Source: a virus (taxonomy: Duplodnaviria > Caudoviricetes). Taken from it: 64,000 nucleotides of DNA. Below, one piece after another: positions 1 through 3,816 of this stretch. Where the stretch lies: IMG/VR virus record IMGVR_UViG_3300026549_000039, positions 82,264 through 146,263 of that record. The stretch is one strand, 5' to 3'. The notes beneath the pieces are model-generated. The model did not search any database. It was not told the DNA's origin and was given only the letters and a program-made list of their open reading frames with translations. Position 1 is the stretch's first letter. Every line of letters begins with the position of its first letter. A program made the translations under genes and the position numbers.

Positions 1-155
1 GCGGCGGCGGGTAAATTTTTTAAACCAGTCGTAGGTAATGCTTGCCAGCCGCTGCCAGATTATTAAACCAGCAACCAATACTTTCACGCATGGGTAGCAT
101 TGCGTAGTTTCGTATACCCGCTACCCGTAAAAATTTTTCCTGATCGGCGAAGCCG

Positions 156-210
156 TTTTCTTTTAAAAAGACTTTTATAATATACTTTACTTTATAAAAT
201 GAAAAATCCG
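156..210. promoter_or_regulatory. AT-rich putative DNA-unwinding element of the origin
   Basis: Very A/T-rich stretch (TTTTCTTTTAAAAGACTTTTATAATATACTTTACTTTATAAAATGAAAAAT) next to the iteron array. Confidence 0.6.
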
Positions 211-247
211 CGTAAAACGTTCAGCCGCAACCACTTACGCGTTTACG

Positions 248-377
248 CCCCACATCAGATAGACCAGATCCCCACATCAGATAGACCAGGCTCCCCACAT
301 CAGATAGACCAGGCCCCACATCAGATAGACCAGATCCCCACATCAGATAGACCAGTCCCCCACATCAGATAGACCAG
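248..377 (+). repeat. Six iterons CCCCACATCAGATAGACCAG (replication origin)
   Basis: Identical 20-bp copies at 248, 270, 293, 314, 336 and 358; periods 22/23/21/22/22 bp (about two helical turns); lie between the AT-rich region and the 3' end of the Rep-like ORF. Confidence 0.85.
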
Positions 378-418
378 GCTGACTTTAGATTGGAGTACGT
401 ATTTATACCTAGACGATC

Positions 419-1339
419 TTACTTTTGCTGTTCAACTTCTAGCTGTTTAGAAGTAACCGCCAGGTGTACACCATTGCTGGTCACATCGAGTAGCGTATAT
501 GCACCACACCCTTCAATAGCTGGTCTAAGGGTATAGTCTACCCAGCTCACCATACCTCTCCTCCACCCACGGTTATCATGGGTAGCTGTTTCAAAGGGAG
601 GCAGCGTTGTGAATCTATACAGCAGATTGAATGGCATTATGTATTCATTCTGTCTCTGCTCATAGTTCATTTTCCTGTCTAATAACAGGAACCTGTTTAC
701 GGAGAAGGCATGAATGCTGCGTTTCCTACCAAACTGGTACATCTCCCTATGTACTACTAGAGGAGACGGTGTTTGTGCTTCCTGCAATCGGGCTACTATG
801 TCATAAGTAAGGGTTACTTTATAAGCATAACCATCACACGTAGCAGCAGACACCACACTAATAGGCTGCTCAATCGCGTGCAGGGTATTGTAAGCCGCAT
901 CAAGCCTGGTTTTGTACTTTCTTCTGGATCGTGTAACAGCATCACTAGATGGGCCTGATCCTTTCGGATAGACCATCTCAGCAATACCGTTCAAGTTTAG
1001 ATCCACAGTAGGGATCCAGTTTTGGTTTGGAGAGTTTACTGAATTGAGTTTGATGATTGCTGACATAAGAAAATCAGCAATCATAGCAACATCCTCCTTA
1101 CACCCTGCTGTTAAGAGAGCGTGAAGAATGTCGTTTCCAGCTTTGTTTTGGTACACTTCTATCCTGTTGTTCATCGAGTCCACCACCAGATAACAGCACA
1201 ATATTTTGTCCTGCTTTTCAGAAGGATAAAACTTCTGTTCTATGTTATGAACCCGTTGATATCTATGGAGTTTTGGTTTATAATAAGCTCCGTACTCGGG
1301 TCCAGCTCCTGAGTGCGTCGCCTTCCTCAGCTGACCCAC
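419..1339 (-). CDS. Putative plasmid-type replication initiator (Rep); real start probably ATG at 1174
   Basis: Directly abuts the iterons; GGTGG RBS precedes ATG 1174 (MNNRIEV). Function inferred from context. Confidence 0.55.
   Translation of the reverse strand: MGQLRKATHSGAGPEYGAYYKPKLHRYQRVHNIEQKFYPSEKQDKILCCYLVVDSMNNRIEVYQNKAGNDILHALLTAGCKEDVAMIADFLMSAIIKLNSVNSPNQNWIPTVDLNLNGIAEMVYPKGSGPSSDAVTRSRRKYKTRLDAAYNTLHAIEQPISVVSAATCDGYAYKVTLTYDIVARLQEAQTPSPLVVHREMYQFGRKRSIHAFSVNRFLLLDRKMNYEQRQNEYIMPFNLLYRFTTLPPFETATHDNRGWRRGMVSWVDYTLRPAIEGCGAYTLLDVTSNGVHLAVTSKQLEVEQQK
1256..1284 (+). promoter_or_regulatory. Sigma70-type promoter antisense to rep
   Basis: TTGATA-17 bp-TATAAT. Confidence 0.65.
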
Positions 1340-1400
1340 TGAGGTGGCAACTATAGGCCCGATTTGAGCAATCCCTTTTGGGCCTATTTCTTACTATTGC

Positions 1401-1409
1401 ATTATAGCA
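1401..1409 (-). promoter_or_regulatory. Extended -10 promoter for rep
   Basis: TGCTATAAT on the - strand; the same motif precedes the SLT gene (9369-9377) and thyX (24931-24939). Confidence 0.55.
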
Positions 1410-1467
1410 TACCAGCTCTTCTGCTGTGTGGGCTGACCCTCGCGTAGTAGACTAGCGGTATTGATGA

Positions 1468-1493
1468 GCCGGGCTTTCACCCCGGCCTTTTTT
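1468..1493 (+). terminator. Intrinsic terminator
   Basis: GCCGGG-7 nt loop-CCCGGC followed by CTTTTTT. Confidence 0.7.
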
Positions 1494-1704
1494 ATACCTT
1501 CAAGCATTCATGGTCCCTAAACCACATACATGACCATACACCGTCAAAGACCTGTTTACCTTTTCTGTAATGTACACACCTGTTTTGTGCAAAGTAACCT
1601 AAAGGGCAGGTAGGCAGGTCTAAATCCAACCCTAACCTATAGTCATTGGCTTTTTTAGGCTTTACTGTACCACCTATGTCACGATTCTGCCTTAATAAGT
1701 TCAA
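1492..1704 (-). CDS. Small Cys-rich hypothetical protein
   Basis: Overlaps the primase stop codon; four Cys. Confidence 0.5.
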   Translation of the reverse strand: MNLLRQNRDIGGTVKPKKANDYRLGLDLDLPTCPLGYFAQNRCVHYRKGKQVFDGVWSCMWFRDHECLKV

Positions 1705-2687
1705 ATATCAGCACCTACCTGTTCCATTACCTGTCTAAGCGTAGATATCTTGTGGCATGATGTAGAGGTGCAGAAGAACATACCAAAGTAGTCCGAGTTT
1801 GGGTTAATATCCAGGTATGCTGATGGATGCCTGTCATCATGAAACGGGCAGCAGCATATCACTTTACCACCTGCTCTACCGTAAGCCTTATAACCAGCAC
1901 CATTTAGAACACCAACTACATCCACATGTTCAATGATACTCATGGCATCCTCTTTTACCTTCATACGCCTGGAAGTGAACTCGGCATCCATAGGCTTGAA
2001 CTTCTGGTACATGTTCTGCCTAAGTTTCTGTAGCTCCTTACTCTCACACCTACCCAGGGCTGACTTCATATCATCTACCTTATAATAGTATGTCCTATTA
2101 GGAAACACTGGAAGAGACTTATTGATTGACTCAAACACCATTGTGTCAACCATAACAGCTGGTTTCCTGGTATTCCTGGAATAGAAGTTCAAGCACTGCA
2201 TGGGTAGTATACTCCTGGTATCAGCCTTTATACTAGCCTTCATCAGTGAAGCAGGATAGGCATAATCAAAGGCAGACATGGGCCTGTCCAGCACCCAGTA
2301 CAGATGCCATCCGTTACCAGTTCGCACAGCAGAGGTAGGGGGTATCCAATCACAGAACTCATAGAGGGTAGCATCCTGTACCTGCCTCTTCTTACCTGCC
2401 CACTCCCCTCTATCATAATCAAAGTCCATAGCAACACACCATGCCTTCTCGACGCCTACAAGGCTCCTGTTAGGGGTATTGTACAGTCCCGCTGTACTCC
2501 TAACAACCTCTAGTATCTTCTTCAGGCCTGGATAACGTTTAGGCATCTCGGCCACAGAATAGAAGAAAGCAGGGTTGTTTGCACCAGTATCAGGACCAGC
2601 AAACATCTTGTCAGACTCTCCAGCAAAGTGCTGTGATAAAAACTCCATAAACAGAATGTCTACTCCCTTGTCCACAACATCCATCAA
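1701..2687 (-). CDS. AEP (RepB'-type) primase with C-terminal CHC2 zinc finger
   Basis: AEP motifs VAMDFD and VRTGNGWHLYW; C-terminal CCPFHDDRHPS...FFCTSTSC. Confidence 0.8.
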   Translation of the reverse strand: MMDVVDKGVDILFMEFLSQHFAGESDKMFAGPDTGANNPAFFYSVAEMPKRYPGLKKILEVVRSTAGLYNTPNRSLVGVEKAWCVAMDFDYDRGEWAGKKRQVQDATLYEFCDWIPPTSAVRTGNGWHLYWVLDRPMSAFDYAYPASLMKASIKADTRSILPMQCLNFYSRNTRKPAVMVDTMVFESINKSLPVFPNRTYYYKVDDMKSALGRCESKELQKLRQNMYQKFKPMDAEFTSRRMKVKEDAMSIIEHVDVVGVLNGAGYKAYGRAGGKVICCCPFHDDRHPSAYLDINPNSDYFGMFFCTSTSCHKISTLRQVMEQVGADI

Positions 2688-2702
2688 GATGCCTCTCCTC
2701 TC

Positions 2703-2762
2703 TTGACAAGTGTAAGTATTTTGCTTACAATATCATTATACACCGCAAGGTGAATTTAGCAA
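2703..2762. promoter_or_regulatory. Overlapping opposite-strand promoters sharing operator 2712-2728
   Basis: + strand TTGACA(2703)-17-TACAAT(2726); - strand TTGCTA(2762)-16-TATAAT(2740); operator GTAAGTATTTTGCTTAC. Confidence 0.7.
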
Positions 2763-2769
2763 GAAGGAG

Positions 2770-3816
2770 TTGGGTATTAAAATGATCGATGGAACTGCTT
2801 TTGGGTCTGACAAACCTGTTTCCTATAGGTCTAAGGTAGCAGAAAAGCTATTGAGGCAGGCTAGTCAATTTGTATCAGACCACCCGCATATGCTTAGTGA
2901 TATTGACAACACGCTTAACAAGGCCATCTCTTGCGCTATGGACTCTGTTGGTGTGTACCCTCCTGATATTTTAGGTGGTGATGGTAAGTACAAGATGCGT
3001 CTACCTACTATCAGTAATGGAAAGCTCTATATGGTCACCATTACTATAAGAGGCAAGATCCCAGAAAGCATGGACGAGACTGATGTAGTTGAGTCAAATG
3101 TGGTATCCGTGGATCGTGTTCCTCTGGCTCAGTGGGCAAGCACAAATCTCAATGACGATCATAGGCAAGCTACCTATGAAGCCATCGAGCATGAGGTGAT
3201 TGATTCAGCTATAAGTACCATACGGAAGCTAAGCACAGTAACGTGTGGCGATATGGCTACAGCTAAAAGAGCAGAAGAAACTCTAGCGGGTATGCTAGAG
3301 AACTACACTGCTGCTGCGAGCAACCTAAGCATGAGTGAGCGCCAGCTTATTGCCTATCTTCCTGATCGTGACTATGACGCAGAAAAGGCTAGGGTCGTTG
3401 TATCATTTCAGTATTTTGATGGGAAAACCAGGGTATACCGTGTGCAAGCTGAGACGTGGGATGATGCTGATTCGACTTGGAGACCGCATATAGGTGATGA
3501 TGATGACCTCTGCTCAGATGAGACAGTGCGCACTATGATTGCAGCTGGTGAGCAAGGCCAGAACAGTATGGTCGATCATCCACAGCATTATGGTGGTGCT
3601 GATAATCCTTATGAGGCCATTAAGGTTATTGAAGCCTGGATGGATCCTAGCGCAAGCTATGGATTTTGTATAGGAAATGCTCTAAAGTATATATGTAGGG
3701 CTGGTAAGAAGAGTGGGTCAAGCACAAGGCAGGACCTTGAGAAAGCAATATGGTATTTGAACAGGGCATGTGAGGAGGCGAAGACCAATGAAGAAGAAAC
3801 AGCAGACAAGAAGTGA
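2770..3816 (+). CDS. Protein with C-terminal DUF3310 (T7 gp1.7-like nucleotide kinase) domain
   Basis: VDHPQHY...EAIKVI...GFCIGNALKYICRAGKK...QDLEKAIWYL. Confidence 0.8.
   Translation: MGIKMIDGTAFGSDKPVSYRSKVAEKLLRQASQFVSDHPHMLSDIDNTLNKAISCAMDSVGVYPPDILGGDGKYKMRLPTISNGKLYMVTITIRGKIPESMDETDVVESNVVSVDRVPLAQWASTNLNDDHRQATYEAIEHEVIDSAISTIRKLSTVTCGDMATAKRAEETLAGMLENYTAAASNLSMSERQLIAYLPDRDYDAEKARVVVSFQYFDGKTRVYRVQAETWDDADSTWRPHIGDDDDLCSDETVRTMIAAGEQGQNSMVDHPQHYGGADNPYEAIKVIEAWMDPSASYGFCIGNALKYICRAGKKSGSSTRQDLEKAIWYLNRACEEAKTNEEETADKK

Follow-up and report, generated by a model that had tools for sequence, protein, structure and literature searches.

Iterons and antisense RNAs are presented in reviews as alternative replication controls (PMC5304414, PMC12361487). 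In plasmid R1 (IncFII), the control elements are arranged in the order copB - PrepA - CopA/CopT - tap - repA (PMC12361487, PMC5717011), and another arrangement is given by RNAI of the ColE2 type together with the REx-C control modules of Pseudomonas plasmids, which are exchangeable (PMC5304414). Iterons are lacking in the ColE2 replicons and in that of pPsv48C, and potential iterons were noted in pRA2 (PMC5304414). Here, we describe a predicted non-coding RNA of ~203 nt, located at 1291..1493 on the + strand, which faces the leader of an iteron-type replication initiator gene (rep) in the genome of a large uncultured phage. The window, meaning the whole stretch of 64,000 nucleotides that was analyzed and whose numbering is used throughout, corresponds to positions 82264-146263 of the 146,263-bp IMG/VR record IMGVR_UViG_3300026549_000039 (Caudoviricetes), which is classed as linear and ~86% complete. 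The RNA is read here as a cis-antisense countertranscript that would limit Rep, both by pairing with the rep leader and by transcription across the rep promoter, and the probability of this reading is put at about 65%. Iterons and a predicted antisense RNA thus stand together at this locus, whereas the reviews treat them as alternatives, and the pairing is unusual on a large phage.

The layout resembles that of R1 in several respects. A small upstream gene is oriented like rep, with which it could share a transcript, there is a second, proximal rep promoter, the antisense promoter lies inside the leader ~100 nt before the rep start, and the origin is downstream of rep. CopA is an RNA of ~90 nt with two hairpins, and in contrast the RNA predicted here has ~200 nt and five hairpins. 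Further differences from R1 are that no tap-like leader peptide is present, that the RNA reads across the rep promoter, and that a predicted iteron-binding winged-helix Rep is accompanied by six iterons. With the ColE2-type and REx-C systems the locus shares an antisense RNA directed against the 5' untranslated rep leader, about three stem-loops in a core of <200 nt, stems that are kept by compensatory changes, and a control region that is swapped as a module, as seen here in the mosaic of H4, H1/H2 and the proximal leader (H1 to H5 being the five hairpins, numbered from the 5' end). It differs from them in having unrelated sequences, an RNA whose end lies past the rep promoter, and, as its carrier, a phage genome that measures at least 146 kb.

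The putative antisense promoter, TTGATA-17-TATAAT, has its -35 hexamer at 1256-1261 and its -10 hexamer at 1279-1284 on the + strand, and matches the consensus at 11 of 12 positions. It is the best + strand site in 3 kb and predicts a transcription start at ~1291. Re-implementation of the same consensus-scan rule on both strands of the 146,263-bp genome (292 kb of strand scanned) returned only 10 sites with at least 11/12 matches. The minimum free energy (MFE) fold of the + strand RNA has a ΔG of -82.9 kcal/mol and a z-score of -5.28, and 0 of 200 shuffled sequences was as stable; for the reverse strand of the same stretch the values are -78.8 and -4.14. In this fold, H1 (1291..1317, +) is a hairpin of 9-10 bp with an invariant G-U pair, H2 (1320..1348, +) is a hairpin with an internal loop, and H3 (1353..1387, +) is a hairpin rich in GC that has an invariant GGCCC/GGGCC stem and a U-rich stretch after it. 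The core of H4, which is long and irregular, is at 1409..1461 (+). The terminator scan places H5, an intrinsic terminator, at 1468..1493 (+), with a GC stem at 1468-1486 and a T6 tail; read on the reverse strand, the tract has no U tail.

No conserved + strand open reading frame (ORF) runs across 1291-1493, where the longest frames differ in both frame and length between relatives. The + strand RNA belongs to no RNA family described so far: an Rfam search in which E-values up to 10 were considered returned only weak matches driven by its terminator hairpin (E 2.7-7.9), far under the gathering scores. BLAST of window positions 1-3000 against phage and plasmid collections gave no match, and neither a second copy of the RNA nor significant complementarity to it was found elsewhere in the phage genome (best match 13 nt, E 0.35). 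Pattern searches did not extend the family either. An H3-based pattern returned only unrelated GC-rich terminators in viral contigs (L007-L011), and an H3-to-promoter pattern returned one chance match in metagenome contigs, inside a 611-aa ORF (L012), and none in viral contigs.

The RNA is faced by a predicted promoter of the opposite direction. A perfect extended -10 element for rep (TGCTATAAT) lies at 1401..1409 on the - strand and is invariant in 8/8 sequences, namely the window and seven related metagenomic contigs (L002, L006, L013, L003, L004, L005, and L014) that were traced through homologs of Rep and of the 70-aa protein encoded upstream. It predicts a rep mRNA with a start at ~1394 and a leader of ~220 nt, and on this predicted start the overlap comes to ~104 nt, in which H1-H3 face the first nucleotides of the leader, so that 116 nt before the ATG are left free. 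On the opposite strand, H3 would then also be the structure nearest to the 5' end of the rep mRNA. The two convergent promoters are ~115 bp apart, and H4 and the terminator, which lie upstream of the rep start, are outside the overlap with the rep mRNA made from this proximal promoter. Most of this architecture had been proposed in a first-pass annotation made from the letters of the window. The TTGATA-17-TATAAT promoter and the U-tailed terminator at 1468-1493 were found as it had described them, the three hairpins it had named correspond to H1, H2 and H3 in the MFE fold (H4 was absent from its list), the transcript of ~200 nt proved to be without a conserved ORF, and the rep promoter at 1409-1401, with a leader of ~220 nt and an overlap of ~100 nt, was borne out as a prediction. 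Its claim that the G-U pairs favor the + strand holds for H1 and H4, in pairs as well as in energies.

The strongest evidence is the recurrence of this layout across the Rep family, which is more than chance. Five contigs carry distant homologs of Rep (L015, L017, L018, L019, and L020; 22-33% identity overall, 22-25% for L017-L020), and their leaders cannot be aligned with that of the window except around H3. A homologous GGCCC hairpin stands just before the rep -10 in L017, L019, and L018. Candidate antisense promoters, each with a TG element, were found in four of these contigs: CTGACA-17-TATGAT at 81 nt before the ATG in L017, TTGGCG-18-TATAAT at 76 nt in L018, TTACCA-17-TATACT at 88 nt in L019, and TAGATA-16-TATAAT at 83 nt in L020. 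They score 9-10/12, and sites of at least 9/12 occur in this genome at a background of 7.3e-4 per nt per strand. The rep-direction element opposite them is TGATATAAT in L017 (190 nt before the ATG), L019 (198 nt), and L020 (175 nt), and TGTTATAAT in L018 (167 nt); an antisense terminator was present in L017, L019, and L020 and was not found in L018. In L015, a full rep-direction promoter lies 233 nt before the ATG. Overall, a perfect TGnTATAAT precedes the rep ATG by 167-227 nt in the window and in four other lineages, and by 218-379 nt in the relatives of the window clade, which have insertions in their leaders, compared with 12 TGnTATAAT sites in the whole genome. On these sequences it is very unlikely that both promoters would stand at fixed distances in four or five lineages by chance.

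Across all of these loci, the window included, 78-132 nt of overlap are predicted and 82-116 nt of the leader stay free; in L017-L020 the overlap amounts to 78-97 nt. Folding is stronger on the antisense than on the sense strand in L017 (z-scores of -5.1 and -2.4, respectively), L015 (-6.8 and -4.6), L019 (-6.3 and -4.2), and L020 (-5.3 and -3.2). The distant loci also bear on the length of the RNA. The possibility that H3 is in general the real terminator, which would give an RNA of ~100 nt, was rejected, because in L017 and L019 the corresponding hairpin has no U tail and the terminator is found past the rep -10; H3 may nevertheless act as a partial first terminator in the window clade. Since the terminator of L017 and L019 stands just beyond the rep -10, the crossing of the rep promoter looks like a part of the design.

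Among the close relatives, both promoter hexamers with their 17-nt spacing, the five hairpins, and the terminator are kept in 8/8 sequences. H4 is the helix with the best comparative record: it has 18 pairs, many of them G-U, 100% of cells are paired, and five pairs show changes of both partners and five of one partner, mostly by way of G-U, whereas slid controls, in which the partner was shifted by 1-3 columns, gave 30-47% of cells paired. In H3, 8/9 pairs are invariant, and the terminator stem is invariant in the relatives, so that H3 and H5 are uninformative on covariation. H2 forms a hairpin in all of the sequences, with a stem of different sequence at the same place in the L003/L004/L014 clade, and its pairs were left uncounted because the alignment between clades is ambiguous column for column. 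H1 holds one invariant G-U pair, and two of its positions change from U-G to U-A and from A-U to G-U, by which pairing is kept on the + strand only; three G-U-type positions of H1 would become A-C mismatches on the other strand.

The strands were compared by per-hairpin energies, as scoring of the mirrored + structure on the - strand was uninformative. In all eight sequences H1 folds at -12.6 kcal/mol on the + strand and at only -4.9 to -7.3 when reverse-complemented, and H4, in both of its versions, has -22 to -24.6 against about -15 to -17.5. H1 and H4 are thus 5-10 kcal/mol more stable on the + strand, and H2, H3, and H5 are symmetrical. Folding as DNA is near equal for the two strands (-37.3 and -36.6). 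Because H1 and H4 both favor the + strand, the RNA most likely spans the whole of 1291-1493. Taken as sequence comparison, these data give moderate support for stem-loops formed on the + strand.

Conservation and exchange are distributed unevenly over the control region. The block 1256-1410 is 74% identical to L003/L004, where the rep coding sequence (CDS) is 57-64% identical, whereas the leader adjoining the ATG (1175-1255) has 27-49% identity, which amounts to unrelated sequence, even in L002, whose rep CDS is 97% identical. L002 is also a mosaic in which H1-H3 of the window type are joined to the H4 version of the L003 clade, the clade with 55% Rep identity. The combination of a 97%-identical rep CDS with an unrelated proximal leader and an H4 from the other clade places recombination breakpoints inside the control region. 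The mosaic was seen over 1175-1255 and 1411-1461 when the window was set against L002, L006, and L013. Extra H1-like units of 35 nt are inserted between the antisense -10 and H1, one in L006 and two in L002 (L002:3819-3888, corresponding to a position after window 1284); their stems, read on the antisense strand, include three G-U pairs, and a compensatory change between copies is seen at one position.

A second antisense unit, non-homologous to the conserved one, was observed between the conserved unit and the rep ATG in L003 (L003:2062-2219, - strand of the locus) and also in L014. It consists of a predicted TTGAAA-17-TATAAT promoter (11/12) 107 nt before the ATG, an RNA of ~120 nt, and a GGCCCGG hairpin with a U-rich tail. 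The rep leader of ~380 nt in these two contigs would accordingly be faced by two tandem antisense promoters.

From these features a mechanism can be proposed. A strong promoter of the constitutive type inside the rep leader would produce the ~200-nt RNA with five hairpins, and transcription would stop where the upstream 70-aa gene ends. Over its first ~100 nt, which comprise H1-H3, the RNA is fully complementary to the predicted rep mRNA that starts from the extended -10 promoter (1409..1401) and would pair with the 5' end of that mRNA, and the whole RNA could pair with read-through transcripts of the operon formed by the primase-like gene and the 70-aa gene. Pairing might mark the leader for cleavage or block its use. 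Antisense transcription would moreover cross the rep -10 and start site, and the convergent promoters would be expected to interfere with each other. In this way the RNA may set the level or the timing of initiator synthesis during infection.

Several observations weigh against this proposal. The RNA is known here from its sequence, and we infer from it the activity of both promoters, the existence of the transcript, a negative effect, and the step that is hit. Both promoters are predictions by consensus matching. The antisense promoter of L015 reaches only 8/12, and L018 shows no strand preference in folding (z-scores of -5.76 for the antisense and -5.70 for the sense strand), in which it stands apart from the other four of the five distant loci. 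The support from covariation is moderate, as it comes from essentially two or three independent sequence versions. The 3' half of the RNA (H4 and H5), where covariation is best, falls outside the overlap with the proximal rep mRNA, and a read-through target or another role is needed for it. Finally, the mechanism is not pinned down by any of the known devices. Transcription attenuation of the pT181/pIP501 type was rejected, as the scan found no rep-sense terminator or attenuator on the - strand of 1174-1394, between the antisense target and the rep start. Coupling through a tap-like peptide, as in R1, was likewise rejected, as there is no conserved leader peptide and no conserved leader ORF that ends at or near the rep start; no leader ORF is common to the lineages and none exists in the window. 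Control of the IncB/IncI type or by a switch at the ribosome-binding site (RBS) was discarded because, by thermodynamic prediction in 8 loci, the target region is not coupled to the rep RBS and the accessibility of the RBS is unchanged when the overlap is removed.

The position of H4 leads directly to the question whether the RNA is real and has its main job elsewhere, as a trans-acting small RNA or a protein-binding RNA that acts on host transcripts or on a phage or host protein; H4 and the multiplied H1 units would then be the working parts, and the overlap with rep a secondary feature. This explanation draws on the fact that H4, the best-supported helix, is outside the overlap and is exchanged as a module between relatives, on the multiplication of the H1 unit in L002 and L006, and on the continuation of the conserved block into the 70-aa gene rather than into rep. 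We consider it unlikely, since no complementary site was found elsewhere in the phage genome (the 13-nt match mentioned above), the convergent promoter pair tracks rep where the upstream gene differs or is absent, and H4 has no counterpart in L017 and L019, where the terminator follows directly after the rep -10. A different assignment of H4, as a separate domain for protein binding or stability, belongs to a further proposal in which the RNA is a trans-acting determinant of incompatibility or competition that acts on the rep leaders of co-infecting relatives so that one phage would exclude another from replication. The modules that are shuffled between phages with near-identical Rep, that is, the H1/H2 variants, the multiplied H1, the two H4 versions, and the tandem unit of L003/L014, form the pattern expected of an incompatibility determinant; even so, this proposal is regarded as doubtful. 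If it were true, the RNA and the iterons would make up a two-layer control on a large phage of the lytic type and not on a plasmid.

The hairpins could alternatively act in the strand of the rep mRNA or as a DNA element, for example as a stabilizer of the 5' untranslated region, as an operator, or as ssi-like hairpins for the adjacent primase, and the + strand promoter would then be fortuitous. The reverse strand is indeed structured as RNA too (z -4.14), the two strands fold nearly equally as DNA, and the element is placed between the primase-like gene and rep, within the replication module. H4 and H5, however, are upstream of the rep start and so outside that mRNA, and H1 and H4 lose 5-10 kcal/mol on the sense strand; the origin formed by the iterons and the AT-rich tract is ~900 bp away on the far side of rep, and a fortuitous promoter would not be expected to recur at the same distance in five lineages or to be paired with + strand terminators. 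These points make an action on the sense strand or as DNA decidedly improbable. As for chance, by which an ordinary intergenic region would contain an accidental promoter-like site and a terminator that serves the neighboring genes, the expectation from the consensus scans alone is 5.5 promoter-like and 2.3 terminator-like sites in 3 kb. Yet conservation is higher in the non-coding block than in the rep CDS, the terminator has + polarity with no + strand gene upstream of it, and neither the fold z-scores, the covariation, nor the recurrence of the layout would be expected, so that coincidence is judged very remote. The cis-antisense countertranscript remains the preferred reading.

As a countertranscript, the RNA can be compared with two further systems. 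It is like RNAII/CopG of pMV158 and RNAI of pT181 in being a cis countertranscript from a promoter in the rep leader, in having an intrinsic terminator, and in its predicted action on initiator expression (PMC4485353, PMC5703833). It is unlike them in that the overlap spares the rep RBS by the 116 nt of free leader, no attenuator is present, the RNA is far larger, and the Rep is of another type. An antisense RNA of a phage is also on record: Heinrich et al., in 1995, reportedly described one in the lytic replicon of P1 that is directed towards the promoter of the phage replication gene. P1 is a proven plasmid prophage, and its RepL has a repressor-controlled promoter. RepL and this promoter are unrelated to the Rep and promoter of the present locus, no relation in sequence or structure exists, and no maintenance genes were found here.

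The gene under this proposed control, rep, occupies 419..1174 on the - strand and encodes a protein of 251 aa whose predicted structure is that of an iteron-type initiator with two winged-helix domains. The start was set at ATG 1174 because the homologs measure 251-256 aa and the part upstream is not conserved; a frame of 306 aa from GTG 1339 was rejected, as the homologs cover only the part from ATG 1174 and the upstream sequence is unrelated between relatives. At the sequence level Rep is isolated. None of 14 family members gave a Pfam match, no PHROG and no PDB sequence match was obtained, and only 11 representatives were found among 1.8 billion protein clusters (E<=1e-3). Searches with Rep, the primase-like protein, and two alignments revealed no relatives in IMG/VR or GTDB genomes. 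By sequence, Rep thus represents an undescribed family of putative winged-helix initiators. The AlphaFold model built from the 14 family members (pLDDT 89.5, pTM 0.87) is clearly RepE/pi-like in its predicted fold: each of its 44 best Foldseek matches in the PDB is an iteron-binding initiator (R6K pi, mini-F RepE54, or a Rep-iteron-DUE complex), at probabilities of 0.96-1.00 and TM-scores of 0.37-0.49.

The origin region agrees with this assignment. Six identical iterons lie directly downstream of rep at 247..383 (+); they are exact 17-mers inside units of ~20 bp with a period of ~22 bp, where 0.22 would be expected by chance, and L004, with a Rep of 52% identity, has a different iteron at the same place. 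Beside them, the AT-rich tract at 121..240 (no strand assigned; GC 27-30%) is likely to be the DNA unwinding element (DUE). A predicted two-domain winged-helix fold, direct repeats of ~22 bp, and an AT tract are shared with RepE (mini-F), pi (R6K), and the Rep-iteron-DUE complexes (PDB 1rep, 2nra, and 8aan); the differences are the lack of sequence-level membership in any of the families searched and of an iteron-like operator at the rep promoter. No such operator was found near this promoter within 3 mismatches, and a classical autorepression site was not seen. A second family of repeats was observed at the origin in L002, where three direct repeats of ~27 nt, spaced 46 and 37 nt, are located beyond the iterons and the AT tract (L002:5101-5210), in a region that corresponds to window ~1-100 and the preceding sequence.

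Read on the - strand, the replication module consists of the primase-like gene, the 70-aa gene, a non-coding gap of 318 nt, the 251-aa rep, the six repeats, and the AT-rich tract, and in the close relative L002 it extends to a DnaB-type helicase. The primase-like gene (1701..2687, -) encodes a C-terminal CHC2 (DnaG-type) zinc finger at residues 250-308, outside of which no Pfam family was matched. Back-to-back strong promoters were observed at 2703-2762, between the primase-like gene and a DUF3310 gene. The + strand one is TTGACA-17-TACAAT (11/12), and the - strand one, at 2762..2735, is TTGCTA-16-TATAAT (10/12) and probably drives the operon of the primase-like and 70-aa genes. The primase-like gene heads this operon, which may read through into rep. 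As the terminator scan found no - strand terminator between 2687 and 1174, transcripts from the promoter at 2762..2735 may traverse the whole region, and the entire + strand RNA would be antisense to them.

The 70-aa gene (1492..1704, -) overlaps the primase-like stop with its start, and its own stop codon lies inside the T tract of the + strand terminator. Its product retains four invariant cysteines and two histidines and is 80-93% identical where Rep is 52-55% identical. The distribution of substitutions by codon position (2/2/12), together with the conserved four cysteines, indicates that the gene is truly coding. The product had no family match in the Pfam search and is probably a small zinc-binding protein. 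A role as a CopB-like or RNA-binding partner was considered and set aside, as there is no family match and the model is too poor to search (pLDDT 45.6).

These results also bear on how the first-pass annotation had interpreted the locus. Its identification of the gene as rep is upheld by the match of the AlphaFold model to pi, RepE54, and the Rep-iteron complexes, and by the iterons and the AT tract. Its suggestion of dual control by iterons and an antisense RNA is a fair reading in view of the conservation, the G-U asymmetry, and the recurrence of the layout. The likeness it drew to R1, pT181, and repABC stands as a functional analogy and fails in the particulars, as no Rfam match, leader peptide, rep-sense attenuator, or RBS coupling was found. 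A switch between lytic and plasmid replication, which it offered as another option, was not borne out: hidden Markov model (HMM) searches gave no matches to integrase, ParB_N, or AAA_31 (ParA-type ATPase) in the 146-kb record, which is ~86% complete, so that 14% may be missing. A phage-plasmid lifestyle is therefore unsupported.

The locus illustrates that a well-delimited candidate non-coding RNA gene and two predicted promoters can occupy what current pipelines annotate as empty intergenic space. The exchange of hairpin modules between related phages would offer a natural system for the evolution of specificity. Provided that the RNA is produced, these phages would use antisense control of the initiator as a conserved means of setting the level or timing of their replication.

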